Assembly (NCBI GenBank): GCA_040006935.1
Contig: JBDTVZ010000003.1
Span: 66,224 to 130,223, forward strand
DNA: 64,000 nucleotides
Direction of reading: 5' to 3'
Source of the DNA: Candidatus Dojkabacteria bacterium
GTDB taxonomy: Bacteria; Patescibacteriota; Dojkabacteria; J137
Shown here: positions 4,172 through 59,267 of the stretch, in pieces
How positions within the stretch are numbered: position 1 is the first letter of the stretch
Layout: each line of letters begins with the position of its first letter
Translations under genes and position numbers: made by a program
Notes under the pieces: generated by a model
Database searches by the model: none
What the model saw: only the letters and a program-made list of their open reading frames with translations
Told to the model about the DNA's origin: nothing

Positions 4172-4210
4172 AAATAAAAAATGAAGATAATCTTTTCAAA
4201 TTATCTTCAT
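4172..4210 (-). terminator. Rho-independent terminator downstream of ftsZ
   Basis: A 9-bp stem (gaagataat/attatcttc) is followed on the - strand by TTTTTTATTT. Confidence 0.55.
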
Positions 4211-4238
4211 TTACTCATTCTCTCATTTACTAATTTAA

Positions 4239-7013: not shown

Positions 7014-7194
7014 AGAATCTCTTTAACTTAAATTAAATGTTATTTCTATATTTTAACAGATTTATTGTTATTTAATAACATTACTGATTAAAAGTACATA
7101 ACGTTAAAACGTTGGAAATTTAGAACGTTATAAAGATTACCTCAACGTTTCCAATATTACAACTTTTAATTTTGTAACTTTTCAACGTGGGTTG
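7014..7194. promoter_or_regulatory. ftsA upstream region with four AACGTT palindromes and the motif TACATAACGTTAAAACGTT
   Basis: Repeated AACGTT hexamers are seen directly. A near-identical TACATAACGTT(T)AAAC word recurs at about 49722 in the sodA/apbE divergent region. Confidence 0.35.
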
Positions 7195-8253
7195 TTAAAT
7201 TCCAGAATATTTTTCTGTTCTAAAGTCTATTATGCTTAAGTTATTATACTCTCCACTAGAAATTAGTACATTTAAATCTCTAACCTGATCTAATGCTGGC
7301 CTACGTGGATAAAACAAAAGTTGTTTCCCTGTATCAGTATCAAATACAAAAGTATCCCCTGCTCGGTAATCAATATCAATAATATTTAATGGTATTTTCA
7401 AAATAAGTTCTTGTATTTTTAGAACGAACTCTATGCTTGTTTCGCTCACCTCCTCCCCTATTCCCGTTTTATCCAGAAGCCTTACTAAATCTGAGTAGAC
7501 TGATTGTGATACTACGGCTTGTGCTTGTTCAAAATATGCATTTATTTTTCCTTGTGCTTCACTTTTAAACATATCTATATATCTGTCTTTATCTTCTTTT
7601 GTTGCTTTAGACCAAAGATTCCCTGCGTCAATATTAGCTTGGTCTTCTTCAAATCTTTTTTTAACTGAAGGATCGTCTTCTTTAAGTTTTCCGTCTAGAG
7701 CTGATGATTCTTGTCCTGTGAGTTCTATTTTTGGTGCTGGCAAACTTCCCACTTCCATTGCCCTATTATTTAGAAGGCTTATTTTGTCCTTTGAAACTAC
7801 TACTACTACTGGAGTACTTTCTACAATATCTACTTTTATTAATCCTGTAATATCTTTAGAAACATATACGGCTAACACTTCTCCATACTTACTTTTTATG
7901 AGATTTTCTATTTCGCCAGGACGAATTTTTAAAATATTCTTACCCTTATAAACATCTAAAAGATTTAGAATATCTTTACTATCGACTCTAACAATACCTA
8001 CTATTTGAATATCTTGGACTAAAAATATTTTATCATTATTAAATAAGAAGATTCCGAATCCAGCGATAATGATAACTATTGCCATTAGGAAATATTTTTT
8101 AAGCGATCCTATTTTATCTGCAACATCTCCTGCCATATCTTTCAGAAGCAGTTTTCTCCTTTGCTTTTTATAATCAATTTTTGGTTCTTTATTCCTTCCA
8201 AACATACAACTCATATTACACGAGCATGAAGATGAAGTCATGATGAATATCAT
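7195..8253 (-). CDS. ftsQ: Cell division protein FtsQ/DivIB-like (POTRA domain)
   Basis: A short basic cytoplasmic tail and a single TM are followed by a POTRA-like beta region. The position upstream of ftsA-ftsZ matches the usual gene order. The listed ORF extends to 8358, but those extra 35 codons lie in a GC-rich repeat element and are probably not translated. Confidence 0.55.
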   Translation of the reverse strand: MIFIMTSSSCSCNMSCMFGRNKEPKIDYKKQRRKLLLKDMAGDVADKIGSLKKYFLMAIVIIIAGFGIFLFNNDKIFLVQDIQIVGIVRVDSKDILNLLDVYKGKNILKIRPGEIENLIKSKYGEVLAVYVSKDITGLIKVDIVESTPVVVVVSKDKISLLNNRAMEVGSLPAPKIELTGQESSALDGKLKEDDPSVKKRFEEDQANIDAGNLWSKATKEDKDRYIDMFKSEAQGKINAYFEQAQAVVSQSVYSDLVRLLDKTGIGEEVSETSIEFVLKIQELILKIPLNIIDIDYRAGDTFVFDTDTGKQLLFYPRRPALDQVRDLNVLISSGEYNNLSIIDFRTEKYSGI

Positions 8254-8462
8254 ATGTACAGGCCTGCCCTGAGCGTAGCCGAAGGGCTGAGATGTTTGGA
8301 GTATTTGCCCAGCTGTAAAATCCCCCGGCACTCCTGCCTGCCTCTGGCATGGTTGCAAAGGGAGAATTCCTCCTTTTTAAAGGAGGTGGCCAGCTTTAGC
8401 TGGACGGAGGATTTCTACCGCACCGAAAGCATGACAAAGATTTTGTGCGGTCCTTATTGGTA
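8254..8462. repeat. GC-rich repeat element copy A (core ctcctgcctgcctctggcatgg at 8331-8352) with several internal hairpins
   Basis: The segment is strongly GC-rich against the AT-rich genome. It shares the CTTGCCTGCC..TGGCATGG core with copies at 10303-10343 and 15535-15563. It contains the hairpins cctccttt/aaaggagg, ccagct/agctgg and ccgcac../gtgcgg. Confidence 0.6.
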
Positions 8463-10161: not shown

Positions 10162-10235
10162 TCGGAGAGTAGTTCAATTGGCTAGAATACGCGTTTTGGG
10201 AACGCGGGGTTGCAGGTTCGAGTCCTGTCTCTCCG
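10162..10235 (+). tRNA. tRNA-Pro (anticodon UGG)
   Basis: A manual cloverleaf fold works. The acceptor CGGAGAG/CUCUCCG pairs. The D-arm is GUUC..GAAU. The anticodon stem is CGCGU/ACGCG with loop UUUGGGA (U33, G37). The T-arm is GCAGG-UUCGAGU-CCUGU. The discriminator is A and no CCA is encoded. It is flanked by an extended inverted repeat, atcagagtcggagag...ctctccgactctgat. Confidence 0.8.
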
Positions 10236-10420
10236 ACTCTGATAATAGTAGTTCAACCCGCCTGTCCGCGCAGTCGGGCAGGTTGGTTAGAATACGCGTT
10301 TTGCTTGCCTGCCTCCTTGGCTGCCTTGGGCATGCTGGCATGGGGAACGCGGGGTTGTCGAGTCCTGTCTCTCCGATTTATTAACAATTCAGTCCTGTTT
10401 GCCTGCCAAAGGCAGGTTTC
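10236..10420 (+). pseudogene. Decayed tRNA-Pro paralog carrying GC-rich repeat element copy B, followed by a ttgcctgcc-aaa-ggcagg hairpin
   Basis: Direct alignment to the intact tRNA-Pro shows the D-loop segment agtagttcaa..ttggttagaatacgcgtttt. A 26-nt GC insert (cccgcctgtccgcgcagtcgggcagg) sits in the D-loop. A 40-nt insert (gcttgcctgcctccttggctgccttgggcatgctggcatg, 10303-10342) lies between anticodon-loop positions 34 and 35. There is a 5-nt deletion in the T-stem. The 3' end tcgagtcctgtctctccga is kept but no complementary 5' acceptor exists. Confidence 0.6.
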
Positions 10421-14099: not shown

Positions 14100-14366
14100 A
14101 TGGAAGCAAAAACCGAAACACAAACTGCATCGCAACCAGAAAAACAAATTGAATATAAACCTGCTCTTTTGACAGAGTGGCAGGGTAAACTTGAAGGCAA
14201 GAATGTCACTGCGAATATTAACGGTAATATTGTAAAAGGTTCTGTAAAACAAATTATGATCTCGCAGACCTTCCCTAAAATTCTTATGGCTTTAATTCGA
14301 TCCCTAGACGGGAAGAGTTATATTGCATACGACTTAGACAAAGTTACAGTTGATGAGGTAATTTAA
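14100..14366 (+). CDS. Hypothetical small protein
   Basis: ORF only. Confidence 0.3.
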   Translation: MEAKTETQTASQPEKQIEYKPALLTEWQGKLEGKNVTANINGNIVKGSVKQIMISQTFPKILMALIRSLDGKSYIAYDLDKVTVDEVI

Positions 14367-15370
14367 TCTATATACGCGAAAGTTATTGTCGGCGTTTGGC
14401 CTAAGTAACCAATTTTATATTCCTCAATCTTATAATTTGGAAAGTTCCTACTTAGATACTTACTCACTATTTCGGGATTAGAGCTTATAAGACCTATCCC
14501 TCCATTGATCTCTAGGATTCTCCTATATTCATTTATTATGCCGTTGTATAAGGAGTTAATATCATCAATTCTTATTTGTTTACCCCAAGGTAAATTAGAA
14601 ACTGCGATATCGAATTGTCTAGTAAATTTAGTATGTGAAGCATCCTCCAAGTACAATTTAAAATCCTGATATCCAACTTTTGCTAGATTTTTCTTAGTTA
14701 TCTCCACTCTACTACTAAGAATATCCCCTCCAGAAACTTTCAGACCCTGATTGAACCCCTCACATAAAAAAGTTCCACTTCCACATAAATTATCTACTAG
14801 AGTTTTTGCATCAACTTTGCTTTTTAGAAAAGTAATCATAGCTGCCGCTATTGTTGGCCTTATACTTCCAAATTGTGACATATGTTCATACTCTCTTTGA
14901 TATAAACTTTTTGGGAATATTTTTAATAATACAGTTGCATTCTCTCCTTCCAGTGCAACTTTAACATCAAAGTTTGAATGATCTAAAGGAGAATATGAAA
15001 AGCCTAATATCTTAGTAAGCTTATCCGAAAACTGAGATTTGATTGAATCTTGTGAATAATCTTTATTTTTATAAACACTTGCTGTAATTGAAAAGAACGC
15101 TTTGATTTTTCTAATCCCTTTAATCCACTCAATGGCTTCAGAAAAATTCTCTTTGGTTAAAAGATTAATTATCGTTGTAATATTTGCACTTAATATTAAG
15201 ATTGACAAATCATCGACTGTTTTCAGATGGGCAAGTTGTGTAGTATCACCTAAAAAATCAAACTCCACATGTTTTTGCCTGCAACTTATGTTTGAAACTC
15301 CTTCAAGTTGCCTAATTTCTTCTGCTGAGATCTCTTCTATTCCTTTTACAACACTGGCAATAATTTTCAT
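14363..15370 (-). CDS. THUMP-domain RNA (guanine-N2) methyltransferase-like protein
   Basis: SAM motif LCGSGTFLCEGF. The catalytic motif is SNLPWG (a (D/N)PP(Y/F/W)-type). An N-terminal THUMP-like region is present. Confidence 0.6.
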   Translation of the reverse strand: MKIIASVVKGIEEISAEEIRQLEGVSNISCRQKHVEFDFLGDTTQLAHLKTVDDLSILILSANITTIINLLTKENFSEAIEWIKGIRKIKAFFSITASVYKNKDYSQDSIKSQFSDKLTKILGFSYSPLDHSNFDVKVALEGENATVLLKIFPKSLYQREYEHMSQFGSIRPTIAAAMITFLKSKVDAKTLVDNLCGSGTFLCEGFNQGLKVSGGDILSSRVEITKKNLAKVGYQDFKLYLEDASHTKFTRQFDIAVSNLPWGKQIRIDDINSLYNGIINEYRRILEINGGIGLISSNPEIVSKYLSRNFPNYKIEEYKIGYLGQTPTITFAYID

Positions 15371-15459
15371 GGTTAGATTATACTACCACAACGCAATACC
15401 TAAATTAAGAAGGATGAAAGTCTAGTGAAAAGATTCTACTGTTACACCCAGTCTTGCGG

Positions 15460-15487
15460 GAATGTTACGTAATTTTACGTAACATTC
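15460..15487. promoter_or_regulatory. Perfect 28-bp palindrome GAATGTTACGTAA-TT-TTACGTAACATTC, a putative operator
   Basis: Seen directly: 13-bp perfect arms, a 2-nt spacer and two TTACGTAA cores. It lies in the upstream region of the THUMP methyltransferase, next to the GC-rich element. Confidence 0.45.
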
Positions 15488-15500
15488 ACCTGTATTTGTG

Positions 15501-15641
15501 GTCATTGCGAGGAGGACTTATTGTGCCCTGCCCTGCTTGCCTGCCTTTGGCATGCTGGCATGGAGCGGAGTCGAAGGGTGGCAATCCCATTAGAAACCAA
15601 GTCCTTGGATTGCTTCTCAGTCTTAGACGGATCGCAATGAC
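15501..15641. repeat. GC-rich repeat element copy C, flanked by a 10-bp inverted repeat GTCATTGCGA/TCGCAATGAC; core gcttgcctgcctttggcatgctggcatgg at 15535-15563
   Basis: The GC-rich block shares the core with copies at 8331 and 10303. It is followed by agcggagtcgaagggtgg, which is also seen at 18806. A separate 26-nt perfect palindrome catgcctgactgc|gcagtcaggcatg lies at 15659-15684. Confidence 0.6.
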
Positions 15642-15722
15642 AACAAGAAATAGGCCGCCATGCCTGACTGCGCAGTCAGGCATGTAACACAGCTGGCGAT
15701 AATGTTGACTTCACAAGGGTAA

Positions 15723-16382
15723 TTAGCCTTTTTTATTAGCTTTCCATTCCTCTATCTCTGCATGATTCCCTGAAAGAAGAACTTCTGGAACTGTCCACTC
15801 TTCGCCTTCATCATTTTTGAAAGTACTTGGACGTGTGTATTGAGGATATTCGGGATTACCTTCTGTTGTTTCGTCTTGTAAAGATTCTTCACTTCCTAAA
15901 ACCCCTGGCATTAATCTTATTATAGAATCTAAAATCACCATCGAAGGTAGCTCTCCGCCAGACAAAACATAGTTTCCTATACTAATCTCTTCGTCAATTA
16001 AGTTTTCTACAATCCTATGATCAAAACCTTCGTAATGCCCACAAAGAATTACAACTCTATCAATTTCTTTAGAATATGTTTGTGCGAAAGTCTGATTCCA
16101 TTGCTTTCCTTTTGCACTCGTTAAGATTACTTTTGTTTTTGGATCTTTGTTTGGATAAACTCCAAGTGCTTTTAATGCGTTGTAAACAACTTCTAACTTT
16201 ATTAACATTCCTGGATTTCCACCAAAAGGTTTATCGTCAACGGTGTGGTGTTTATCTGTAGACCAATCTCGAAGATTATGAATATTTATTTTTACTAAAT
16301 TTTTTTCTTTTGCTCTTTTTACAATACTTTCGTTTAAGTACGAGTAGGAGTTTGGGAAAAGTGTAATTATGTCGAATTGCAA
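15723..16382 (-). CDS. trmD: tRNA (guanine37-N1)-methyltransferase TrmD
   Basis: MQFDIITLFP.., ILCGHYEGFDHR and SIGNYVLSGGELPSMVILDSIIRLMPGVLG are classic TrmD motifs. Confidence 0.92.
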   Translation of the reverse strand: MQFDIITLFPNSYSYLNESIVKRAKEKNLVKINIHNLRDWSTDKHHTVDDKPFGGNPGMLIKLEVVYNALKALGVYPNKDPKTKVILTSAKGKQWNQTFAQTYSKEIDRVVILCGHYEGFDHRIVENLIDEEISIGNYVLSGGELPSMVILDSIIRLMPGVLGSEESLQDETTEGNPEYPQYTRPSTFKNDEGEEWTVPEVLLSGNHAEIEEWKANKKG

Positions 16383-16521: not shown

Positions 16522-18732
16522 CTAAGAATCTAATTTCTCCAGCTTAGCGTACTCCATCATTAATTCTTTTTTCCCGTAAACTGGTCCGAAGTTGATGATC
16601 ACAATATCTGAATCTATATACTCTACTGTTCCTTTTCCAAAGTAATCATGCCTGACTTTATCACCAATACTTAAATCTACAGATGGTTTGTAAGGTTTAT
16701 CAATAGAAGAATCTGATGCTGCACTCCAACTTGTTTCGTAACCAATCGCTTCATCGTTTTGTAAATCTAAAATTGAATTATCAATGTCTTCAATAAATCT
16801 TGAAATTAGATTTCGTTGAGTCTTTCCAAAATATTTTCTGGACTTTGTGTACGTCATGAATAACTTTTTCTTTGCTCTTGTGATTGCAACATAAGCAAGA
16901 CGCCTTTCCTCTTCCATTTCGTGTTCGTCCATCATTGAGTTTGAATGTGGGAATAAATTTTCTTCCATTCCAACAACGAATACATATTCAAATTCCAATC
17001 CTTTTGCAGAGTGAATTGTCATTAACGTAACTGATTCTGACGAAACTTCTTTTTTACTAAAACTTTCTAATAAAGATATTTCTCCTAAGAAATTTTCCAA
17101 TGCTTCCTCTGGTTCTTGATCTTCAAATTTTGAAGCGAGTGAAATTAATTCTTTTAAGTTTTCAATTCTTGTTTCTCCTTCCGCAGTTCCGTCATCTAAC
17201 ATTTCTATATATTTTGTTTTTTCGAGAACAAGATTAATAAAGTCTATGATCTTCTTTTCTTTAGATTGTTTGATCAAATCCACAATCATTGATGCAAATG
17301 CTTTTAACTTCGGATTTATTCCGTCTTCCGTTTCCCGCTGACCGTTAACCTCGAGCAGGTATTGCAATGCACCCATGCCTTTCCCCTTGGCTAAAACTTC
17401 AAGATCCGTTGCGCTTTTATCTCCAATTCCTCTTCTCGGAGTATTTACCACTCTTTTAAAAGACGAATTATCCTTTGGGTTATAAATTAATCGAAGATAC
17501 GAAAGAATATCTTTAACCTCTTTTCTATCATAAAAACGAACTCCACCAACAATTTTATATGGAATATTATTTTGTAAAAATGCTTCTTCTAAAGTTCTTG
17601 ACTGTGCGTTTGTTCTATATAAAACTGCGAAATCATTAAATCCCTCTGGTGAATCTTTTTTTAATTTTTCAATTACTTCAGTTACATATAGCGCTTCATT
17701 CTCTTCGTTAAGTGCTTTGTACAAAACTATATTGTCTCCATTATCATTTTCTGTCCAAAGTTTTTTATCTTTTCTTCTTTTATTTTTTGAAATTACTTGA
17801 TGTGATGCTTCTAAAATCTTTTTTGTGGATCGGTAATTTTGTTCTAGTTTAATTACCTTTGCACTCGGGTAATCTTTTTCGAAGCTTAAAATGTTTTTAA
17901 TTGTTGCTCCTCTGAATGCGTAAATACTTTGATCGTCATCTCCAACACAACAAATATTTTTGTAATGCTCTGCCAACAATTTAATAATTGTATACTGAGC
18001 ATGATTTGTATCCTGGTATTCATCAACTAAAATATATTTAAATGCTTTTTGTAAATTAGTTAAAACTTCTTTGTTGTTTTTTAAAAGCTGAACTGTAAGC
18101 ATTAATAAATCATCGAAATCTACTGCGTTACTTTCTTTTAAAATTTTTTGATACTCTGGATAAACTCTGGCAACAGCTTGTTGAAAATATCCTTGTGCGG
18201 ATCCTGAATATTCTTGATGTGTAATTAATTCGTTTTTTGCAGAAGAAATATAGGAATGTATTGCGTATGCATTAAATTCTTTTGTGGAAATTTTTGCTGC
18301 TTCCATTGCATCTTTTGTAATTGCAATTTGATCACTGGAATCGTAAATGATGAAATTTCTGTTAATCCCAACTAATTCACCATATTTTTTTAAAAGCTTT
18401 AAACAAATGGAATGAAAAGTTCCCATCCAAGGTAAGTTTTCAGTTTGTTTATTCTCTGATGACTGATTACTGATAACTGACAACTTTTTTATTCTCTCTT
18501 TCATTTCCTCAGCAGCTTTATTTGTGAAAGTCATTGCAAGGATATTCATTGGGCCAGCTAAACCAGAATCAAGAATGTAAGCAAGACGATAGGTTAAAAC
18601 TCTAGTTTTACCAGATCCCGCACCTGCTAAAACCAAGACTGGACCTTCTGTAGCCAGAACAGCTTCTTTTTGTGGTGGATTTAAGATGTCTAAATTAATC
18701 ATGGGAAATTCAAAAGATTCTTTGAATGTTAT
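16522..18732 (-). CDS. uvrD: ATP-dependent DNA helicase UvrD/PcrA
   Basis: Walker A AGAGSGKTRVLTYR and helicase motifs II-VI (DEYQDTN, VGDDDQSIY, QNYRST, VLYRTN). A C-terminal Tudor-like tail is present. The ORF extends to 18831, but the conserved N-terminus begins near MITFKE/MINLDILNPPQKEAV. Confidence 0.9.
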   Translation of the reverse strand: MTFKESFEFPMINLDILNPPQKEAVLATEGPVLVLAGAGSGKTRVLTYRLAYILDSGLAGPMNILAMTFTNKAAEEMKERIKKLSVISNQSSENKQTENLPWMGTFHSICLKLLKKYGELVGINRNFIIYDSSDQIAITKDAMEAAKISTKEFNAYAIHSYISSAKNELITHQEYSGSAQGYFQQAVARVYPEYQKILKESNAVDFDDLLMLTVQLLKNNKEVLTNLQKAFKYILVDEYQDTNHAQYTIIKLLAEHYKNICCVGDDDQSIYAFRGATIKNILSFEKDYPSAKVIKLEQNYRSTKKILEASHQVISKNKRRKDKKLWTENDNGDNIVLYKALNEENEALYVTEVIEKLKKDSPEGFNDFAVLYRTNAQSRTLEEAFLQNNIPYKIVGGVRFYDRKEVKDILSYLRLIYNPKDNSSFKRVVNTPRRGIGDKSATDLEVLAKGKGMGALQYLLEVNGQRETEDGINPKLKAFASMIVDLIKQSKEKKIIDFINLVLEKTKYIEMLDDGTAEGETRIENLKELISLASKFEDQEPEEALENFLGEISLLESFSKKEVSSESVTLMTIHSAKGLEFEYVFVVGMEENLFPHSNSMMDEHEMEEERRLAYVAITRAKKKLFMTYTKSRKYFGKTQRNLISRFIEDIDNSILDLQNDEAIGYETSWSAASDSSIDKPYKPSVDLSIGDKVRHDYFGKGTVEYIDSDIVIINFGPVYGKKELMMEYAKLEKLDS

Positions 18733-18794
18733 CATAATTGTGGTTGAAAAGTTATAAAGTTCAAGGTGTGAAACTAAGTAATTCATTGCTATAG

Positions 18795-18825
18795 TAGGTG
18801 GCATGGTGAACGGAGTCGAACCATG
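18795..18825. repeat. GC-rich repeat fragment copy D (ggtggcatggtgaacggagtcgaaccatg), a hairpin with T-loop-like GGTTCGACTCC on the - strand
   Basis: It aligns to 15543-15575 (gctggcatggagcggagtcgaagggtgg). Its CATGGTGA...GTCGAACCATG ends match 31067-31132. Confidence 0.45.
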
Positions 18826-18851
18826 ACTCAAGAGCTGATATAATTCAGATT

Positions 18852-21481: not shown

Positions 21482-21555
21482 ATATAAAGGATAAGATTAA
21501 GAATTTAGGAATATTAGGCCTTAATTCTGAATTCTTAAACTCAATTCTTAATATT

Positions 21556-21615
21556 TGGAGAGGTGGCTGAGTGGTTGTCAGCCAGAGGCTGATCCGCCTT
21601 TGGCGGAAAAGTGCT
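21556..21615 (+). pseudogene. tRNA-Ser 5'-half duplicate with a 29-nt GC-rich D-loop insertion (tcagccagaggctgatccgcctttggcgg)
   Basis: ggagaggtggctgagtggttg and aaagtgctcgtct are identical to the intact tRNA-Ser 5' half at 21651. The insert lies between them and similarity ends after the anticodon stem. Confidence 0.6.
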
Positions 21616-21650
21616 CGTCTTGGGTCAAGGTAATATTATGCATGTAAATT

Positions 21651-21735
21651 GGAGAGGTGGCTGAGTGGTTGAAAGTGCTCGTCTCGAAAACGAGTGTTCC
21701 GCAAGGGATCGCAGGTTCGAATCCTGTCCTCTCCG
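21651..21735 (+). tRNA. tRNA-Ser (anticodon CGA), long variable arm
   Basis: Manual fold: acceptor GGAGAGG/CCUCUCC, anticodon stem CUCGU/ACGAG, loop CUCGAAA, variable arm GUUCCGCAAGGGAUC, T-arm GCAGG-UUCGAAU-CCUGU, discriminator G. Confidence 0.8.
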
Positions 21736-21752
21736 TAGAACTTAGTACGCAG

Positions 21753-21795
21753 TGAATCCTGCTTGCCTGCCGGAATGAAATGAAGGCAGGTCCTC
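21753..21795 (+). repeat. Duplicated tRNA-Ser 3' end (gaatcctg..tcctctccg) interrupted by the 29-nt element cttgcctgccggaatgaaatgaaggcagg
   Basis: Direct comparison with 21716-21735. The element carries the CTTGCCTGCC..GGCAGG hairpin, the same motif as the repeat family and the hairpin at 10395. Confidence 0.55.
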
Positions 21796-31133: not shown

Positions 31134-32846
31134 TTACATCTTCTCCACCACGTCAATTCCCAAAAGATTAAGACCATTTTTTAGAACCTGAGCAGTTGCT
31201 TGAGTTAACGAAATCCTTGCATTTTTATCATCTTCTGTTTCTGCATTTAACACTCTGCAGTTTGCATAGAAAGAATTGAATGCTTGTGCAAGTTCATAAA
31301 GATAATTACAAACTGAGTGAGGTGTAATATTAATACCAGCTTCTTCAACAACATCTGAATAGTTGTTCAGAATTTTTAATAGTGATATTTCATATTCAGA
31401 ATTCAATACTTTAGACTCATCGTAAGAGCTGCTTTCTGATTTTGTTAAGATCGAATTAGCTCGTGCATATGTATAAAGTAGGTATGGCCCAGAGTAGCCT
31501 TCAAAACTCAAGAACTGTTCTGGATCGTAATTAAAATCTTTATGAAATTCGTGTGATAAGACTAGAAATTTAAGTCCCGCATTTGCAACATTATGAACAA
31601 TAGATTTTTTCTCTTCTTCTGTGTAATCTCGAAGTTCAGAAATCTTTTTATACGCAACTTCTTCAATCTCGTTTAAAACATCCATCCCTTTTATACTACC
31701 ACCCATTCTAGAACTGAACTTCTTTCCTCCCCTTAACATCCAACCAAACGGAATATGGAAATATCTACCTTTTGTCTCTGGTTGAATAATATTTAAAACA
31801 TGAATAACAACTTTAAAATAATCTTTCTGTTCTACAGATGTCGTTACAATGCACTTTTCAATATTTGGATATTCTTGAAATTTTAAATGAGCAAGTCCTA
31901 AATCTTTTGCGGAGTAAGTTGGATTACCTTCACTTGTGATGAATACCCAGTTTGTTAAACCGACCTTTTCTCCACGATAAATAATCGCTCCTTCACTTTC
32001 TTCAAATACATCTTTCTTATGCTTCTCTACAATTTCTAAAGCATCTTCATAAATTTCACTTTCTGGATATTGTCTATCAAAAATAATTCCTAAGCTTTTC
32101 CAAACTTCTTTTTGGTGTTCTAAACTATCCTCTCTTAATTTTTTATATGTTTTGAAATTTTCGTTATCTTCTTTTTTATAAATATCTTTATTTATTTGTT
32201 TTATGTGTTCCGCAACAACTGGATCTTCTTTAAAAGCTGTTGCTCCTTTTACATAACAATCATCAATAAATTTCATCTTTTTTTGATGATCCCAGCTTTC
32301 GAATTCTGTTGGAGTGTCTGTATTTAAATACCCCCAAGTTGTTTTTGCAACTTGCATTCCAACATCTCCAAAATAGTTTGCCTTTATAACTTTGTAACCT
32401 AGATTTTCGTGCAATCTGACCATAGATAAACCTGAAACTGCACTCTTCAAATGACCTACGTGAAAAGCTTTATGAGTATTTGGTTGCCCGAATTCAATCA
32501 TTACTTCTTTTCCTTTTCCAAAAGAGCTTTTCCCGAAAGTATCTGCTTCTTCAATAATTTTCCTCACTAAGTTTTTATATATTAAAGAATTTGTAGTGAA
32601 ATTAATAAAACCTGGTTTTACTGCATTTACTTTAGTTACTAATTTAGATTCCGGGATGTTTTTAACAATTTCTTCCGCAATCTCCATAGGACTTCTTTTG
32701 AGCTGACCTGAAAGCCTCATCGCTACATTAGTGGAAAAATCACCATGGGATTTGTCTTTTGGAGCATCAATTTCAACAATCGATTCAATATTTAAAGCTT
32801 TTAGAGCATATTCTGTAAGGGTTTTAAGTTCTTCTTTTATATTCAT
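31134..32846 (-). CDS. argS: Arginine--tRNA ligase
   Basis: Class I HIGH motif (PNTHKAFHVGHL). ArgRS N-terminal additional domain and C-terminal DALR anticodon-binding region are present. Confidence 0.88.
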   Translation of the reverse strand: MNIKEELKTLTEYALKALNIESIVEIDAPKDKSHGDFSTNVAMRLSGQLKRSPMEIAEEIVKNIPESKLVTKVNAVKPGFINFTTNSLIYKNLVRKIIEEADTFGKSSFGKGKEVMIEFGQPNTHKAFHVGHLKSAVSGLSMVRLHENLGYKVIKANYFGDVGMQVAKTTWGYLNTDTPTEFESWDHQKKMKFIDDCYVKGATAFKEDPVVAEHIKQINKDIYKKEDNENFKTYKKLREDSLEHQKEVWKSLGIIFDRQYPESEIYEDALEIVEKHKKDVFEESEGAIIYRGEKVGLTNWVFITSEGNPTYSAKDLGLAHLKFQEYPNIEKCIVTTSVEQKDYFKVVIHVLNIIQPETKGRYFHIPFGWMLRGGKKFSSRMGGSIKGMDVLNEIEEVAYKKISELRDYTEEEKKSIVHNVANAGLKFLVLSHEFHKDFNYDPEQFLSFEGYSGPYLLYTYARANSILTKSESSSYDESKVLNSEYEISLLKILNNYSDVVEEAGINITPHSVCNYLYELAQAFNSFYANCRVLNAETEDDKNARISLTQATAQVLKNGLNLLGIDVVEKM

Positions 32847-34833: not shown

Positions 34834-36225
34834 TTAGGCAGTCATTCTTTCTAGAGCTTTTTTTACTGCCTCCTGGTCGGTAAAATGATATTCAACCGAT
34901 CCAAAAGCAAGTGACTTTTCGTGTCCTTTACCTTCCGCTATAACAACATCTCCGGCCCTTGCTATTCTTATTGCAAATTGAATAGCATCGTAACGTGAGT
35001 TTGTATTGTTTTCATCAAAAGAGTAAATAATATTTTCTCTCTCTGGTGTAGTTTCTAATCCTACTTCTTTCATTAATTCTTTATCCTCAATCTTCGTTTT
35101 ATCAGAAGCCATATAATTATTAAATTCTTCGGAAGTAGCAAAACGTTTTATTAATTTAGCCCCTGTTTTTTCTGCTCCTTTAATAATTTGACTGTTAATA
35201 TCATATAGCTCTTCTATTCTTGGATCTTCTGCCGTTACTATTGTAATATCCGAAAGGTTACCAGAGATTTCTCCCATTGCTCCTCTTTTTTCCACGTCTC
35301 TAAGCCCTGCAGAACCAAATATAGTAATTAATCGACCCGATCTCCCCAATAAATCTTTGGCAGCATCTAAAGACCTTTCTAACGAATCGGCATTATGTGC
35401 AAAATCAACAATTACAAAGAATGGTTGTCTTTGCATTATTTCCATTCTTCCCACAACTCCTTGGTATTCACTCAATGTTGCTGCTGCTTTATTTGCTGTA
35501 ACTCCTAAAGATATTGCTGCTAAGGTAGCTGCGAAAGAGTTTTCAACATTATATTCTCCAATTACTGGAATATTAAATTTGAAACTTTTATACTTATATG
35601 TGATAAATCCTTTCCCCAATTCCACATCTGTAAGTTGTTGAGAAACAGAATATTCAATTTCTTTAATTTTTTGACCATGTATTTTGTTTCGTAGGAGAAT
35701 ATATTCTTTTAGAAATTTATAACTTTTTTGATCATCAAAGTTGTAAATTACTGTTCCGTTATCTTCCAGCGCATCAATGAGTCTGCACTTTGCACGTGCG
35801 TATTCTCCCCAAGTTTTATGATAATCTAAATGATCTCGCTTTATATTAGTGAACACTGCTGTTCTAAATTTTAGAAAACCTAGTCTTCCTTGATCTAAAG
35901 CATGCGAAGAAGTTTCTATTACAACATATTCCACACCATTATCTTTCATTTTTCTTAAATATTTTTGCATATCCACAGGATCTGGAGTTGTTACATGGAA
36001 TCCTGTTTCTATTTCTTCATTCCCTGCGATTGCACCAACTGTAGATACAATTCCTACTTTGTAACCGTTTGATCGTAAAATATCGAAAATCATTGCGGAT
36101 GTTGTGGATTTCCCGGAAGTACCCGTAACTCCTATTAGTTTTAAATCTTTAGCAGGATAGTCATAGTATCTTGCAGCTAAAAGAGATAAATATTGTCTGT
36201 AAATTCTTTTGATTTTTCTAAACAT
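34834..36225 (-). CDS. Mur ligase family protein (MurE-like UDP-MurNAc-tripeptide synthetase)
   Basis: ATP-binding IGVTGTSGKSTT, DHLDYHKTWGEYARAK and IVDFAHNADSLERSL are Mur ligase central and C-terminal motifs. Confidence 0.6.
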   Translation of the reverse strand: MFRKIKRIYRQYLSLLAARYYDYPAKDLKLIGVTGTSGKSTTSAMIFDILRSNGYKVGIVSTVGAIAGNEEIETGFHVTTPDPVDMQKYLRKMKDNGVEYVVIETSSHALDQGRLGFLKFRTAVFTNIKRDHLDYHKTWGEYARAKCRLIDALEDNGTVIYNFDDQKSYKFLKEYILLRNKIHGQKIKEIEYSVSQQLTDVELGKGFITYKYKSFKFNIPVIGEYNVENSFAATLAAISLGVTANKAAATLSEYQGVVGRMEIMQRQPFFVIVDFAHNADSLERSLDAAKDLLGRSGRLITIFGSAGLRDVEKRGAMGEISGNLSDITIVTAEDPRIEELYDINSQIIKGAEKTGAKLIKRFATSEEFNNYMASDKTKIEDKELMKEVGLETTPERENIIYSFDENNTNSRYDAIQFAIRIARAGDVVIAEGKGHEKSLAFGSVEYHFTDQEAVKKALERMTA

Positions 36226-36325
36226 AAAAATTGTTTGAATGTTTTAAAGTTATAAAGTTGAAAGGTTAAATAAATAACATTTCAACTTTTCAACCTTGTA
36301 ACTTTCTAATTTCTTGGTTATTCCT

Positions 36326-39021: not shown

Positions 39022-39077
39022 TTTAATTAATCTTCTTAAGTATCAACTAACTTTTCAACTTTTTGAACCTTTAAACT

Positions 39078-40169
39078 TTATAACTCTTTCAATTGTTCCC
39101 ACAATTCCTTTTCATTTTTTGAAATTTTCTCAGGAATTTTTACTAAGAGCTTTACATATTGATCACTATTCCCATTTCCTCTAAATTTTGGACCTCCTTT
39201 CTCTCTCAATCTTAAAATCTTTTCTGGCTGTGTGCCCGATGGAACTTTCATAATTACATCACCATGCACAGTAGGTACCTTAATTTCTCCACCTAGAACT
39301 GCGGTGACTACATCTATTTCTTTATCCATATAAATATCGTCTCCTCGCCTTTCGAGCACTGGATGGGACTTTACTTCGATTGTTATGTATAAATCTCCAG
39401 AAGTTGCGCCATTTTCTCCAGCATTTCCTCTTCCACTAAATTTTAGTGTAACTCCATCAGGAATGCCTGCAGGAATATTCATTTTGAAAGATTCATTTTG
39501 GGAAGTAACACCACTTCCTCCACACTTATAGCACTTCTCGGAAATTTCTTGACCAGTTCCGTGGCAAGTAGGACACTCTGTTACAACTTGCATTGAGCCA
39601 AAAAAAGTATTCTGCATTTGTCTGATTTGACCTTTCCCTCCACAAGTGTGGCAAGTTTTTTTCTTACCATCTTTTGAACCAGTTCCATCGCATTTATCAC
39701 ATTTTGTTCTTTTCTTATACTCAATTTCTAATTCTTTACCAAAGATTGCATCCAAAAATTCTACTTGGAGAGTTAGTTCTAAATCTGCTCCTCTATTATT
39801 TCTACCTCTTGATGTTCGGGCAGCTCCTGATCCAAAATCAAATCCACCTCCGAAGAAATTACCTAAAAGATCCCCTAAATCTCCAGCTCCAAAATCAAAA
39901 TCTCCTTGGCCAAAACCACCGAAGTTAGATCCTCCCCCGCCGAAAGCTTGAGTTCCTGCAAAACCATACTGATCGTAGGCTTGCTTCTTTTGTGAATCGG
40001 AAAGAATATCATAGGCTTCTTGTGCTTCTTTAAATTTCTCCTCTGCGCCAGCAGCCTTATTTTTATCAGGATGAAACTCTTTTGCGAGTTTTCGATATGC
40101 TTTTTTTATTTCGTCTTTAGATGCTGATTTTGAAACACCTAAAACTTCGTAATAATCTCTTTTTGCCAT
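39078..40169 (-). CDS. dnaJ: Molecular chaperone DnaJ
   Basis: J-domain with HPD (YYEVLGV...EFHPDKN), a G/F-rich linker, and four CxxCxGxG zinc-finger repeats. Confidence 0.93.
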
Positions 40170-40411
40170 AAATCATTAAAAATTTCTAAGTATTTTATCA
40201 TTTAGCAGGTAAAGTGGCTAGATGCTAATTAATTTCAAAAACAAGTTTATAACTTGAAATTTCTGAATTGTTTGAAAATTGAATATTTGTTATTTGAAGT
40301 TTGTATAAACTGCCACTCCAAGGAGTAATCCAACATTTCTGGCAGGGAAAGAATATATTCTTTCCCTACCAAACTGCCAAGAAAAGATAACAGGTGGTAA
40401 AGTCAATATTA

Positions 40412-42756: not shown

Positions 42757-42854
42757 AAATGTATATTCAGATTTCTAAAATTATACTATATAACCCACCT
42801 CTCGTAACTCGTAACCCGTAATCCACTATGATACAATGAAGCGTACTATTTAAA

Positions 42855-45971: not shown

Positions 45972-46642
45972 TGTAAGCTGGTGCGTTTATTATTTTTTAT
46001 TACTGCTGTTAAAACATAATCTCCTTTTAAGTCTTGAACATCTTGTTGATTAATTGTTAAGTTACTGAATGTAACTGATGAGAAGGAGGGCGAATTTCTT
46101 AAGCTTGCCTCTAAGCTTCTTAATAAGTCTAAATCCTCTGTTCCATAAACCGAAACAAATCCATCGGCAACTTTTATTGTTAAATCTGCGCCGGGATTAG
46201 TTACATACGAATAAATTTCTTTGATTATATCTGCACTGTTTGATGAGGAATCCCATAATTTTGTGTAAACATCTTCTTTTGTTGCGAACAGCCTTAGTTT
46301 TGGTTCAACATCTGTTGCGTAAAAATTCAATCTTTCTGTTAATGAATCTATTTGTTTCTTTTTATTTTTTGCATCAGTATCAACAATTACTTTGGCAACA
46401 AATGCTGCGGCAATTAAAATTATTGTAACCATCACCACATACCTTGCTTTATCTACAATCCAGTCGTAAATTTTATCCCATGCAGTTTTTGGGGGTTGAA
46501 GAGGTTTTAATAAATTAAAGGTTACAGATTTTGCCATTAGATTAAATCTAAATTTAGATTGCAAATTTATTGTATCATAAGGAATAAATATTGTTGCAAT
46601 GTTAGAAAGTTTTAAAGTTGAAAGGTTATTCTGATAATACAA
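45968..46642 (-). CDS. Bitopic membrane protein, PilN-like architecture
   Basis: TM plus coiled-coil plus periplasmic domain; overlaps the downstream gene by 4 bp, which suggests translational coupling. Confidence 0.3.
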   Translation of the reverse strand: MYYQNNLSTLKLSNIATIFIPYDTINLQSKFRFNLMAKSVTFNLLKPLQPPKTAWDKIYDWIVDKARYVVMVTIILIAAAFVAKVIVDTDAKNKKKQIDSLTERLNFYATDVEPKLRLFATKEDVYTKLWDSSSNSADIIKEIYSYVTNPGADLTIKVADGFVSVYGTEDLDLLRSLEASLRNSPSFSSVTFSNLTINQQDVQDLKGDYVLTAVIKNNKRTSLQ

Positions 46643-46683: not shown

Positions 46684-47478
46684 ATGACTTATTTTATCTG
46701 TAGAATTCCATTTGGAACTTCGGAATTAAAAATTAAAACCTTAAATGAAATTCCCGATTCTACCGCAGAGGAAATTTCATACTTTATAAATGCTTTTTAC
46801 AATGAGCTAAATCCTAATCTTGCAAATACTTCTGCATATAATTTTAATCATGGGCAAATAGGAATTCCTATTTTTTTGAAAAAAGAGTTTTTAGATTTTT
46901 TATCACAGCATCTGGAACTCGCAGCCGCTACTGAATTTGAATATCAACCTTTTAGTATCTTAGATCCTGATTTAGATTTGAATAGTAATTTGATAAGTGT
47001 AGATAAAAGATCACTTTCTGTAACGAAGAACGATGACATCTCTCTTGAAAGTCCAATAAATCGTAAACACTTTACGATAGATATTTTAAGTGACTTCTTA
47101 ATTAGAGAAAAAGCACTTTCTGATTTTTTAATTGTTTCCGACTCCGTATTCTTAGCCAGGGGAAAACATCCATGGGCTATTGATATTACAGACCATACAG
47201 TGCAGGATTTTACTTTAGAGATTAGAAACGAATCAGTTGTGATTGAACCAATGGAAGTGAAAACCATGAAAAATACTTTTGGTGTTATAGATGAAATCTC
47301 ACCAGTTCAGTATATTTTTATACAAGGCAAATATACAAATTTACCGAAGATAATAGGAACTATTGCGAAGAGAGAAAGGAGCTTAGGAGGTTTAAGTGAA
47401 GTTTCGAGAAAGTATGGAGTAACGATTCATGCTCTGGATAAAAATGATAAACTTACAACTTTTACACCCCGACATTAA
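46684..47478 (+). CDS. Hypothetical protein
   Basis: ORF only. Confidence 0.3.
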   Translation: MTYFICRIPFGTSELKIKTLNEIPDSTAEEISYFINAFYNELNPNLANTSAYNFNHGQIGIPIFLKKEFLDFLSQHLELAAATEFEYQPFSILDPDLDLNSNLISVDKRSLSVTKNDDISLESPINRKHFTIDILSDFLIREKALSDFLIVSDSVFLARGKHPWAIDITDHTVQDFTLEIRNESVVIEPMEVKTMKNTFGVIDEISPVQYIFIQGKYTNLPKIIGTIAKRERSLGGLSEVSRKYGVTIHALDKNDKLTTFTPRH

Positions 47479-48662
47479 AAACTCAAATTCGGTTCTCTAT
47501 CAATCTCACCAAATTCTTTTGGATCAAGATAAACTTCCTTATTATTTTTCATTCTTAACTCGTCATTCGTAATTATATTTGCAACGATTCCAATCATCGC
47601 TGCATTATCCCCAGTTAGCTTATTTGAATATGGAAACCTAAGTTTAATATTTTTATTTAAAGATTTCCTAATTAGTGACCTCAATTGCGTACTTGCAACA
47701 ACTCCCCCCCCTAGCCAAATTTCTTTAGGATTATAAATCTTGACAGCTTTCTCTAGCTTAAGAACAACTTGCATTAAAGCTGCATGTTCAAAAACTACAC
47801 ATAAATCTTTAATCGTTTCTGAGTTTAAATTACTTTCTCCAAATTTTGAAATGAAATCTCTGAAGGCTGTTTTTAAACCAGAATAACTAAAGTTTAAATC
47901 ACCAGAATGTTGCATGGGAATTGGAAGGTTATATTCTTTTTGTGAATGAATATTTACACCTTTTACAATTACGCTCTGATTTTTATTAATAATTTCTAAT
48001 TTAATATTTTTTCTATTCTCTTTAGCAAATTTTGAAATTGTTGGACCTGCTGGATAACCAAGGCCTAAAAACCTTCCACATTTATCAAAGCATTCACCAC
48101 AAGCATCGTCTACAGTTTCTCCAATTTTTTTATACTTTCCAAAATCTTCTACAAGAATAAATTCAGTATGACCTCCAGAAACAAGAACACCAATTGCTGG
48201 GAATTGAGGTATTACTGCCCTCTCCTTTAGGAGAGGAGGGACCGCTTGCGGTGGGTGAGGTAATTTAGAGTTTCTTTCTGCAAAAGCAGAAAGTAAATGT
48301 CCCTCCATATGGTTCACATTTACTAAAGGTTTACTATATTTCTCTGCAAGTTCTTTTGCTTTTTTAATTCCTACCTCTAACGCTATTGCTAATCCTGGAC
48401 CTTTTGTAACTGCTATTGAATCTATTTCTTCGATTGTTTTCCCAGATCTCTTTAATGCTTCAATTACAACTGAATCTATTCTTTCTTGATGAGCTAATTT
48501 TGCAATGGATGGAACTACTCCACCGTATTGTTTATGTAAATCAATTTGAGACGGTTGGAAGTTAGACAGAACTGTATTTCCTAGCAAAACTGCAACAGAA
48601 GTTTCGTCACAAGAAGTGTCGATGGCGAGGATCAAGTTTTGTTTTTCTGGTAGAATTTGCAT
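47475..48662 (-). CDS. tsaD: tRNA N6-adenosine threonylcarbamoyltransferase TsaD (Kae1/YgjD)
   Basis: N-terminal ILAIDTSCDETSVAV and metal-binding HMEGHLLSAF (HxxxH), then VLVSGGHTEF. An approximately 16-aa GC-encoded insert (LPHPPQAVPPLLKERAV) precedes the conserved IPQFPAIGVLVSGGHTEF block. Confidence 0.88.
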   Translation of the reverse strand: MQILPEKQNLILAIDTSCDETSVAVLLGNTVLSNFQPSQIDLHKQYGGVVPSIAKLAHQERIDSVVIEALKRSGKTIEEIDSIAVTKGPGLAIALEVGIKKAKELAEKYSKPLVNVNHMEGHLLSAFAERNSKLPHPPQAVPPLLKERAVIPQFPAIGVLVSGGHTEFILVEDFGKYKKIGETVDDACGECFDKCGRFLGLGYPAGPTISKFAKENRKNIKLEIINKNQSVIVKGVNIHSQKEYNLPIPMQHSGDLNFSYSGLKTAFRDFISKFGESNLNSETIKDLCVVFEHAALMQVVLKLEKAVKIYNPKEIWLGGGVVASTQLRSLIRKSLNKNIKLRFPYSNKLTGDNAAMIGIVANIITNDELRMKNNKEVYLDPKEFGEIDREPNLSF

Positions 48663-49678: not shown

Positions 49679-49797
49679 ATATTAAAATTAAAAGTTAAAA
49701 TGTTTAAAAGTTGCAAAGTTACATAACGTTTAAACATTACAACGTTGTAACTTTTTAACAGTCAGATACATTATACACCTTACTCTACTGTCATAGT

Positions 49798-52069: not shown

Positions 52070-52992
52070 TGATAAGAATTTTTTCCGGAACGGATAGCTT
52101 CGAAAGTTATTCCCTTGCAAAAAAACAAGCAGAAAAGTTAGCAGCGGATAATAACGAAGAAATTAAAATCCTTAATGCTAATGAGATTGATAATCCCGCA
52201 GAATTTATTCAATACATAGAAGGCGTAGGGATGTTTTCTGGTGGCTATATTGTTTTTCTAAAAAGACTTTCCGGAAATAAAAAACTACTAGACTATTTTA
52301 GTGATAATTACGATAAATTAAAAATTTATAATATTATTTTATGGGAAGAATCAAAATTAGATGGAAGGCTTAAATTCTTTCTTAAATTAAAAAAAGATAA
52401 CGGCTCCTTTACTTTCGATTTACCTAATGACCGAGATTTAAAAGCTTGGTTAAACAAAGAAGCTAAAGACAAAGGAATTAAATTTTCAGACTTTCAACTT
52501 AATATTCTAATTGAAAACCTCGGAATAGATAAGTGGAGGTTAATTAATGAGTTAGAAAAAATATCAATCTACCTTTCCGCAGAACAAAAAGATTCTTTGG
52601 GAAATGATGAATTTAACAAAATAGTAGGTTTCGAAGTTTCTGGAGATATTTGGAAACTAGTCGATGCTTTTAGTAATAGAAGATCGAAAGAATGTTTAGA
52701 AGAATACTCTAAAATTTCGTCTTTTGAAGATAATGGACAGTATATTATTGCAATGATGGAAAGAGAATTATCTAATCTTGCTCTGCTTCATTTTGCGAAG
52801 AGAGAAGGCTTGCAGGATAATGAAATTGGTATGCACCCTTTTGTTTTACAGAAATTAAAAGCAAAGGTTAGAAATTTTAGCTTAATCGATATAAATAAAT
52901 ACCTTAAAAAGCTATTTGATTTAGATAGATCTATAAAAAATGGTGATATTGATGAAAAGGTTGGTTTGAGCTTGTATATACTCTCGCTTTGA
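52069..52992 (+). CDS. holA: DNA polymerase III delta subunit-like (HolA)
   Basis: N-terminal IRIFSGTDSFESYSL resembles the delta N-terminal block. Size is about 300 aa. Confidence 0.5.
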   Translation: MIRIFSGTDSFESYSLAKKQAEKLAADNNEEIKILNANEIDNPAEFIQYIEGVGMFSGGYIVFLKRLSGNKKLLDYFSDNYDKLKIYNIILWEESKLDGRLKFFLKLKKDNGSFTFDLPNDRDLKAWLNKEAKDKGIKFSDFQLNILIENLGIDKWRLINELEKISIYLSAEQKDSLGNDEFNKIVGFEVSGDIWKLVDAFSNRRSKECLEEYSKISSFEDNGQYIIAMMERELSNLALLHFAKREGLQDNEIGMHPFVLQKLKAKVRNFSLIDINKYLKKLFDLDRSIKNGDIDEKVGLSLYILSL

Positions 52993-53002
52993 AGAATAAG
53001 CT

Positions 53003-53082
53003 GGACCGCCCACACCATGAATTACTTCCGGGGCGGTATGACCTCTCCCTAACCCTCTCCTTAAAAGGAGAGGGAATCGGAC
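53003..53082. repeat. GC-rich double hairpin (gaccgcc..ggggcgg and ccctctcc-ttaaaa-ggagaggg) downstream of holA
   Basis: The hairpin ccctctcc/ggagaggg is the same sequence as the in-frame insertion in tsaD (48218-48240). Confidence 0.5.
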
Positions 53083-53104
53083 CCTTCGTTTTCTCAAACC
53101 TTTA

Positions 53105-57396: not shown

Positions 57397-57760
57397 ATTC
57401 TTCTATCCAAACAATTATCGTTTGCAAAATATTATTAATATTACTTTTTACACTGTGATCGCTAAATCTAATAAGATTGATTCCTATAGCCAAAAGTTCT
57501 TTCTCTCTTTTAAGATCATAATCAAATTTATCTTCGTTATGACTATTCCCATCAATCTCAATAGCCAATTTTAATTCAGAACAATAGAAATCTACAATAT
57601 AGTTTCCAATAGGCCTTTGTCTATGAAAATCAAAACCTAATAGTTTTTTATTTCTAATTTCTTTCCATAATAAAACCTCAGAAAGTGTACTTTTATTTCT
57701 GAGGTTTCTTGCTAACTGTTTAAGTTTAGGGTTGTAAGGAATTATTTCTCTCATGAACAC
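57380..57760 (-). CDS. DUF559 (Vsr-like endonuclease domain) protein
   Basis: LRNKSTLSEVLLWKEIRNKKLLGFDFHRQRPIGNYIVDFYC...IEIDGNSH matches DUF559. Confidence 0.65.
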   Translation of the reverse strand: MFMREIIPYNPKLKQLARNLRNKSTLSEVLLWKEIRNKKLLGFDFHRQRPIGNYIVDFYCSELKLAIEIDGNSHNEDKFDYDLKREKELLAIGINLIRFSDHSVKSNINNILQTIIVWIEEYEKVE

Positions 57761-58993: not shown

Positions 58994-59267
58994 ACTTAAT
59001 ATTTAATAAGTAGTAATTAATAGCATTAGGGACTGTAGATATGTGTAAAACTTTGTAAATTCCATTTATTATAACAGCTTCCGGAGGGTTTTTGAACTGT
59101 GGATAATCCATGTGTATAGTTTCGGCTAGAAATAGGTCAAAATCAGTTAAGAGGTAAGAATTAAGAGTTAAAATTTTGTGTATTATCTCAAGGGGATAAA
59201 AGGATAAGTTAATAAAATTTCAGTAAGCAAACCCTTTTCATGTGTGGAGAAGTTTTAAAAAACTGAT
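58994..59267. promoter_or_regulatory. AT-rich region with DnaA boxes (perfect TGTGGATAA at 59098-59106; partial boxes at about 59245), a candidate oriC segment
   Basis: The 9-mer box is seen directly. The region is AT-rich and lies between dnaN and yidD. Confidence 0.45.

Follow-up and report, generated by a model that had tools for sequence, protein, structure and literature searches.

An intergenic palindrome at positions 15460-15487 of a 64-kb stretch of Candidatus Dojkabacteria DNA (contig JBDTVZ010000003.1; the whole stretch is called the window below) is a new, deeply conserved cis-element of the Candidate Phyla Radiation (CPR), with an almost invariant 26-bp core that recurs downstream of trmD in other Patescibacteria. 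We favor, with about even confidence, the interpretation that it is an operator-type recognition site on double-stranded DNA for a putative conserved Patescibacteria DNA-binding protein, located at the 3′ boundary of the uvrD-trmD operon. The element is of a familiar type, and no new kind of mechanism is indicated by it alone.

In the window, the palindrome GAATGTTACGTAATTTTACGTAACATTC, annotated without strand, consists of two perfect 13-bp arms, GAATGTTACGTAA (15460-15472) and TTACGTAACATTC (15475-15487). An earlier reading made without database searches (the sequence-only reading) had given the sequence and its coordinates exactly as we found them and had described a perfect 28-bp palindrome; the arms are indeed perfect, but the TT between them (15473-15474) is non-complementary, so that the reverse strand matches with 2 mismatches and the 28-mer as a whole is not fully perfect. 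The conserved core spans 15461-15486, with AATGTTACG (15461-15469) and CGTAACATT (15478-15486) as its minimal conserved arms. Both TTACGTAA octamers of the window (15465 and 15475) lie inside the palindrome, where these self-complementary cores form a perfect direct repeat with a 10-bp period. The intergenic position was confirmed as previously described: a gap of 352 bp separates the trmD stop codon (15723) from the ATG (15370) of a THUMP-type methyltransferase gene, and the palindrome lies within it, 90 bp from that ATG and adjoining a GC-rich island (15488-15714), in a window of 32% GC. Arms of this length had also been judged far beyond chance in 64 kb, which did not hold up, as 14 of 300 dinucleotide-preserving shuffles (4.7%) yielded one or more perfect inverted repeats having arms of at least 13 bp and a spacer of at most 12, and the window itself contains three. 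Judged from the 64-kb window alone, the palindrome is of borderline unusualness.

The palindrome, read earlier as a likely operator, was looked for in orthologous intergenic regions and was found decisively, in 12 other independent loci. A DNA scan of 185,579 species-representative genomes with the pattern GTTACGTAANNTTACGTAAC returned 25 loci (designated here by L numbers, as are all loci compared), 6 of which are from Patescibacteria: three Dojkabacteria, two Saccharibacteria, and one complete 1.14-Mb chromosome. Five of these six share the longer core AATGTTACGTAAAWTTACGTAACATT, which extends beyond what the scan pattern required, and the sixth, L017, differs at the outermost positions. Two further independent loci came from a metagenome scan. 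Four loci were retrieved via proteins rather than via the DNA pattern: L040 and L041, reached through a winged helix-turn-helix (wHTH)-Nudix protein, contain the exact 26-mer, while L046 and L047, reached through TrmD proteins of 60 and 55% identity, contain the 9-bp arms AATGTTACG and CGTAACATT. The 26-bp core is thereby present at 10 other independent Patescibacteria loci, being identical in 8 and changed at the outermost position(s) in L013 and L017; with the two arms-only loci and the window, the number of site-bearing loci is 13. Each matching Patescibacteria genome has one pattern match.

TrmD protein identity among the core-bearing loci is 62-85%, and the flanks outside the core cannot be aligned even with those of the nearest relatives, whose TrmD proteins are 80-85% identical. 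Positions 4-10 from the dyad are invariant in 13 of 13 loci, and no compensatory arm substitutions were seen across bacterial classes. The interior can be replaced, as in L046, whose 8 nt there read ATTATTTG, or lengthened, as in L047, where it measures 18 nt, exactly 10 bp more. As judged from these comparisons, the dyad is under strong purifying selection.

Outside the core, a second level of symmetry was observed. For the 11 loci matched by the scan pattern, we pooled all 22 half-sites and read them outward from the dyad. Positions 1-13 are TTTACGTAACATT, followed by ten unconserved positions and then by T-G-T-G at positions 24-27 (G25 in 17 and G27 in 16 of the 22 half-sites, versus a 16% background), with weak A enrichment beyond; the center is a symmetric AAATTT in most loci. 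On the trmD side, 10 of 13 loci have a (T/A/C/G)GTG motif, both spacer variants among them, and in L047, the sole length variant, each arm keeps (A/T)GTG at the same distance despite the 10 bp gained between the arms. The spacing is 10 bp between the ACGT cores and a further 20 bp from there to the TGTG motif on either side, which places all of these elements on one helix face. The flank segments of 10-11 nt are, by inspection, not complementary, so that no extended RNA pairing is expected. In the window, the trmD-side motif is TGTGG (15497-15501, plus strand), 10 nt past the core edge and overlapping the first base (15501) of the inverted repeat that closes the GC-rich island. Its mirror on the methyltransferase side is TGGG (15447-15450), which together with a decayed -10-like hexamer forms TGGG+TGTAAC (15441-15450, minus strand).

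The only gene invariably linked to the palindrome is trmD (15723-16382, minus strand), which always points at it. In 13 of 13 site-bearing loci trmD lies upstream of the site, usually as the last gene of a conserved uvrD-(x)-trmD block, whose first gene in the window encodes a uvrD/pcrA-type helicase (16522-18831, minus strand; true start probably near 18705). The distance from trmD to the palindrome ranges from 30 to 900 bp overall, and from 30 to 240 bp, counted from the trmD stop codon, where no feature intervenes. The intervening features are a kinase-like gene in L022, L036, and L037, a 107-aa open reading frame (ORF) in L021, about 510 bp without a confirmed gene in L013, and the GC-rich island in the window. 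The gene beyond the site is a wHTH-Nudix gene in L021, L022, L036, L040, and L041, a gene for a 528-aa protein followed by wHTH-Nudix in L013, a lipoprotein gene in L038, an erythromycin-esterase-like gene in L017, and ROK kinase genes in L047. Convergent genes occupy this place in both Saccharibacteria loci and in L046 (L008, L027, L046). In the window a UPF0020/THUMP-type RNA methyltransferase gene (14363-15370, minus strand) sits where relatives have wHTH-Nudix. Past that gene the window is again syntenic, with Peptidase_S51 and ABC ATPase genes as in L022 and with PIN, S15, and FtsQ genes as in L040 and L041; the methyltransferase therefore occupies the wHTH-Nudix slot. Its orthologues in other genomes are not beside trmD and have no TTACGTAA site there.

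The immediate surroundings of the dyad in several relatives resemble promoters. Boxes similar to -10 elements were found 14-26 nt from the dyad edges, namely TATAAG in L022 and L008, TAGAAT in L036, and TATATG in L013, so that in several relatives the dyad would cover the -35 region of one or two outward-facing promoters. The boxes in L022 and L036 serve the kinase-like gene (TATAAT in L022) and wHTH-Nudix, which are divergent genes on either side of the site. The position held by TGTAAC in the window, which lacks A2 and T6 of TATAAT, is occupied by TGGG+TATAAG in L022 and L008 and by TGTG+TAGAAT in L036. The methyltransferase gene has a TATAAT -10 box of its own (15377-15382, minus strand) 6 nt before the ATG, a leaderless-type start whose TATAAT-6/7 nt-ATG layout recurs in relatives, and the dyad center lies about 95 bp upstream of this box. 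Because the box adjacent to the dyad is decayed and the gene has its own TATAAT 6 nt before the ATG, direct repression of the methyltransferase is unlikely. The earlier proposal of an operator is thus supported only in part. A protein-type dyad is favored by the sequence conservation, the spacer variant of one helical turn, and the -10-like boxes of relatives, but the site is not tied to the methyltransferase, whose orthologues lack it, which replaced wHTH-Nudix, and whose own -10 box is distant, trmD being the sole invariant partner.

Several genes of the window (before the ATG at 15370 and at 18852, 31134-32846, 47475-48662, 59551-60240, and others) have a TATAAT-like box 6-10 nt before the start and no Shine-Dalgarno sequence, a layout suggesting that leaderless mRNAs are widespread in this organism and among its relatives. 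Promoter regions here also contain arrays of AACNTT hexamers (AACGTT, AACATT, AACTTT, AACCTT) with an 8-9-bp period, located at 7090-7133, 18745-18775, 36224-36301, 39045-39074, 46584-46628, and 49715-49758, including positions upstream of uvrD, a murein ligase gene, ftsA, and sodA/apbE.

Binding by a protein and its possible effect are inferred from what was observed directly: the palindrome itself, its conservation and linkage to trmD, the variability of its spacer, and the flanking motifs. Recognition of DNA by a protein is preferred over a structural hairpin because the arms are invariant without compensatory changes while the interior is replaceable, and because the only length change equals one helical turn and the flank motifs are dyad-symmetric at a fixed distance. 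The protein would contact two inverted AATGTTACG half-sites, normally 8 nt apart and with their centers on one helix face, each paired with a (T)GTG motif about 10 nt further out. Binding would most likely control or insulate transcription across the 3′ boundary of the uvrD-trmD operon: it could repress abutting outward-facing promoters in relatives, or it could prevent read-through between trmD and its neighbor on the far side. An effect on the methyltransferase of this genome, if there is one, would be indirect, by upstream binding at about -100 or by a roadblock, because the promoter-like box has decayed and the ancestral wHTH-Nudix gene has been replaced. Homodimeric HTH/wHTH repressors that act on operators in divergent promoters likewise use dyads, and in L022 and L036 the site lies between divergent genes, one of which encodes wHTH-Nudix. 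The palindrome differs from such operators in not following wHTH-Nudix, in persisting between convergent genes, and in tolerating the additional 10 bp.

Several observations weigh against this interpretation. No cognate regulator was found adjacent to the palindrome or co-occurring with it, and the best candidate in its neighborhood, the wHTH-Nudix protein, had to be rejected. Its gene adjoins the palindrome in 5 loci and is one gene away in L013, but no palindrome lies upstream of the Nudix gene where that gene is away from trmD (L027, L042, L043), and the 64-kb window contains no wHTH-Nudix homologue. Conversely, the palindrome stays with trmD in seven lineages without an adjacent Nudix gene and follows the Nudix gene in 0 of 3 cases. 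No regulon is visible, as there is no second site in the 64 kb. Promoter repression cannot be the general role because convergent genes flank the site in L008, L027, and L046. The site is absent from the trmD loci L044, L045, and L048, and so is dispensable. Finally, a 10-bp gain in half-site spacing is unusual for a rigid dimer, and the DNA dyad is also an RNA hairpin (-18 kcal/mol) that always lies inside the likely 3′ untranslated region of trmD.

The absence of a second copy extends to matches with up to 3 mismatches, and the further sites anticipated in the sequence-only reading did not turn up: a search of the window for half-sites, cores, and TTACG clusters returned only a threefold CGTAAC repeat before ftsK and an intragenic pair. 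The former consists of CGTAAC/CGTAAC/CGTAAT direct repeats with a 7-nt period (42803-42822) in the divergent promoter region upstream of ftsK; the CGTAAC word also occurs in the palindrome arms. A dispersed repeat of the REP or MITE type was excluded by the single copy in 64 kb and by the syntenic location across genomes. With Rfam 15, only 3 tRNAs scored above the gathering threshold in the window, and the region 15300-15800 gave chance-level matches (E > 4), with nothing at permissive thresholds.

The wHTH-Nudix genes are accompanied by an inverted repeat of their own. A different sequence, (T)AGTGAA-N6-TTCACT(AGA), is present with wHTH-Nudix in L040, L041, and L042, and its right arm only in L043 and L021. 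This repeat is probably an autoregulatory operator of wHTH-Nudix (MutT-like) genes across Patescibacteria. A degenerate copy, CAGTAGAATCTTTTCACTAGAC (15420-15441, minus strand), lies upstream of the methyltransferase in the window as a separate cis-element, left over from the ancestral upstream region.

Two well-described operators resemble the palindrome. CIRCE, the HrcA operator found upstream of groESL and dnaK operons, has the form TTAGCACTC-N9-GAGTGCTAA. Like the palindrome, it has 9-bp inverted arms with a spacer of 8-9 nt and keeps its sequence across phyla or classes; either element occurs once or a few times in a genome and can serve as an operator at the DNA level as well as a hairpin at the RNA level. 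Unlike CIRCE, the palindrome has another sequence and lies downstream of trmD without a known regulator. The window has a CIRCE-like repeat of its own, TTAGCA-N15-TGCTAA (40202-40228) before dnaJ (39078-40169, minus strand); its arms retain the outer 6 of the canonical 9 bp and no more, and in comparison the trmD-linked dyad is unusually constrained. The other resemblance, and the only one that emerged from the literature on the motif and on dif or LexA in Patescibacteria, is to the RDRM, the DdrO operator of Deinococcus, with consensus TTAYGT-N5-ACRTAA (e.g., TGTTATGTTATTTACGTAAG of ddrB; PMC8533742). The half-site TGTTAYGT/ACRTAACA is nearly the same, the spacer is AT-rich in both, and the palindrome is near a repair helicase operon (uvrD). 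However, the spacer is 5 nt in the RDRM versus 6 here (TTACGT-AAATTT-ACGTAA, 18 versus 17 bp), and RDRMs are multi-copy, degenerate, and located in repair-gene promoters, whereas the palindrome is single-copy and downstream of uvrD-trmD. No XRE/COG2856 (DdrO-IrrE) pair was seen in the scanned ORFs, in which no dedicated test for this pair was made, and lexA was not found among them. We consider the RDRM resemblance to be a lead only.

The main rival explanation, which we consider unlikely, is that the element functions as RNA, folding into a stem-loop at the 3′ terminus of uvrD-trmD transcripts (and of convergent transcripts, where such exist) and serving as a terminator, a block to 3′ exonucleases, or a processing signal, perhaps as the target of an RNA-binding protein. 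The site is always downstream of trmD and co-transcribable with it, at 30-240 nt where no gene intervenes, and the predicted hairpin is strong (-18.1 kcal/mol, z = -7). The variants keep the 9-bp stem with loops of 8 or 18 nt, which RNA would easily tolerate. In addition, loci without the site have other hairpins after trmD, such as AAATAGGTAGACCTATTTT in L045, and a U-rich run follows the site on the convergent strand in L008 and L027. The stem, however, is fixed in sequence without compensatory substitutions across classes, a fixity that a plain terminator does not need, and the few arm changes (L013, L017) give A:C or C:A mismatches rather than G:U pairs. A U-tract does not consistently follow in the trmD direction (CAUUCCCGC in the window, CAUUGAGGG in L008, CAUACUGG in L017); it is missing in the window and from about half the loci. 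The other terminators of this genome are hairpins of the A-run/stem/T-run type with unrelated sequences, for example at 4179-4212 and 57673-57707. The sequence-only reading had considered a terminator unlikely; this stands insofar as the fixed sequence fits a protein better than a plain terminator, but the hairpin is stable, and a terminator scan does flag the palindrome, on the + strand only.

A rather improbable alternative is that the dyad is not a gene-specific operator but a single-copy chromosomal landmark. It would then be a domesticated protein site of the mobile-element type, based on the AATGTTACG word, bound to organize or insulate the origin-proximal uvrD-trmD region as a non-canonical centromere, a condensin-loading site, a roadblock to replication or transcription, or a packaging-type site. 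The divergent dnaN (57839-58993, minus strand) and dnaA (60409-61806, plus strand) region, 57839-61806, is the probable replication origin. A perfect DnaA-box palindrome, AAGTTATCCACATGGATAACTT (60289-60310), lies upstream of dnaA, a further perfect DnaA box, TTATCCACA, is found at 59098-59106, and DnaA boxes with at most 1 mismatch are over-represented in the window (36 versus 20 expected). By coding-strand skew, the minus strand is leading from about 59 kb to the left end, with the best change point at 58.5-61.5 kb.

The word itself was found in mobile DNA. We detected AATGTTACG-N(2-30)-CGTAACATT in 72 viral contigs (IMG/VR, L049-L120), with a 14-nt spacer being the commonest (22 contigs) and many contigs having extra 9-mers nearby. 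This independent use of AATGTTACG as a repeated, iteron-like word in phage and plasmid contigs shows that proteins recognizing the word exist in mobile DNA, and it is a precedent for the protein-site interpretation favored above. In L076 (3600-3960), at least nine ATGTTACGT repeats surround an AT-rich stretch; a DnaA box marks one edge of the repeat region and a resolvase gene is close by, an arrangement that resembles the origin of a plasmid or phage. An inverted AATGTTACG pair lies about 1.4 kb upstream of terS-terL in three independent phage groups; these terminase genes were the only shared proteins beside the arms in the viral contigs, and no homologue was found near the CPR sites. The phage and plasmid iterons thus share with the palindrome an identical 9-mer, often in inverted pairs near AT-rich DNA and DnaA boxes or near terminase genes, but they form multi-copy arrays in mobile DNA of unrelated hosts (GC 31-58%), whereas the CPR site is single-copy, chromosomal, and syntenic. 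Tandem GTTACGTAAC-type decamers with a period of about 10-11 bp were also seen in L005, L009, and L012 (one MAG [metagenome-assembled genome] of 65-69% GC), in L015, and in L029-L033; the hosts are a high-GC bacterial MAG, an Elusimicrobiaceae MAG, and several phage contigs, and the arrays are iteron-like and in a context unrelated to that of the CPR site.

It also seems improbable that the element is simply two back-to-back outward promoters without a dedicated regulator, in which the arms would be the -35-proximal parts of modules made of an arm, about 16 nt, and a -10-like box. Such modules would account for the symmetric flanks (TGTG and then kAnAA at a fixed distance from each arm), for the real genes that start on both sides in L022 and L036 with TATAAT/TATAAG boxes, and for the 10-bp spacing change, which leaves each module intact. 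Yet the arm is only weakly similar to TTGACA (GTAACA, 4/6), and the trmD side usually has no gene to transcribe and has poor hexamers (GTCATT, GTGAAC, GAAAAG). Furthermore, the TGTG next to the hexamer is shifted by one position relative to the TGn-TATAAT register of the genome's own promoters, and ordinary promoters are never kept at 26 of 26 positions between bacterial classes.

We regard as highly improbable a site for chromosome maintenance or mobile DNA in the narrower sense, such as a dif/Xer site, a serine-recombinase crossover, a parS-like centromere, or a borrowed site of the pac or iteron type. The palindrome recalls dif in having 28 bp, palindromic arms, central variation, and one intergenic copy per chromosome, with the 28 bp readable as 11-6-11 or 12-2-12. 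In further agreement with a maintenance site, genes on both sides turn over, the site is origin-proximal in the window, no canonical parS is present in the 64 kb, the same arms form the iteron-like arrays described above, and the site lies at 50.9% of the complete chromosome OY969472.1. The last of these is best explained by an arbitrary record start. The palindrome is not at the terminus, as dnaA, dnaN, and perfect DnaA boxes are only 45 kb away and there is no skew switch at 15.5 kb, and a spacer that varies between 8 and 18 nt and in sequence (L046, L047) is incompatible with a recombinase crossover region; dif/Xer was rejected on these grounds. Moreover, the center is the symmetric AAATTT in most loci, and there is no in-register match to the consensus of dif (ATAA-N6-TTATG) or of parS. 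Canonical parS, TGTTTCACGTGAAACA, was likewise rejected, since it has no match within 3 mismatches in the window, the TGTT/ACGT blocks are in another register, and no ParB gene was found among the 49 window ORFs. Neither a recombinase nor a ParB gene was found among all 64 ORFs scanned (49 from the window and 15 from site-bearing relatives), and the absence of the site from three trmD loci also argues against a maintenance role. A functionless chance palindrome, arising for example by a 10-bp slippage duplication of the self-complementary TTACGTAA, would fit the shuffling result and the perfect 10-bp-period repeat of the two cores but is excluded by the conservation, the 26-mer being found in the equivalent syntenic position of 10 other independent and highly diverged genomes with randomized flanks.

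The GC-rich island beside the palindrome (15488-15714, no strand) is absent from all other loci and is thus genome-specific and outside the conserved element. It is closed by a 10-bp inverted repeat (15501-15510/15632-15641), followed by a perfect 26-bp GC palindrome (15659-15684). Similar islands of 55-66% GC are located at 8251-8450, 10237-10410, 21547-21650, 21740-21775, 48194-48274, and 52990-53090. The first four islands in order of position, that of 15488-15714 included, share blocks such as CTTGCCTGCC..GGCATGCTGGCATGG or GAGCGnAGnCGAAGGG as well as short GC hairpins, and the islands look like a genome-specific family of small inserted elements. The segments 10237-10390 and 21547-21650 are partial duplicates of tRNA-Pro (10163-10237) and tRNA-Ser (21650-21736), respectively, interrupted by GC-rich inserts, one of them precisely in the anticodon-loop region; only the intact tRNA copies are recognized by ARAGORN and Rfam.

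To our knowledge, almost nothing is known about cis-regulatory DNA in the CPR, whose members are mostly uncultured and have very few recognizable regulators. The palindrome provides a practical synteny marker for the uvrD-trmD block, and it marks a local hot spot of gene replacement, with wHTH-Nudix, methyltransferase, lipoprotein, and kinase-like genes beside it. As an element that is letter-perfect from Dojkabacteria to Saccharibacteria, its 26 bp are a ready bait for a conserved CPR DNA-binding protein, or for an RNA-binding protein should the stem-loop explanation hold.

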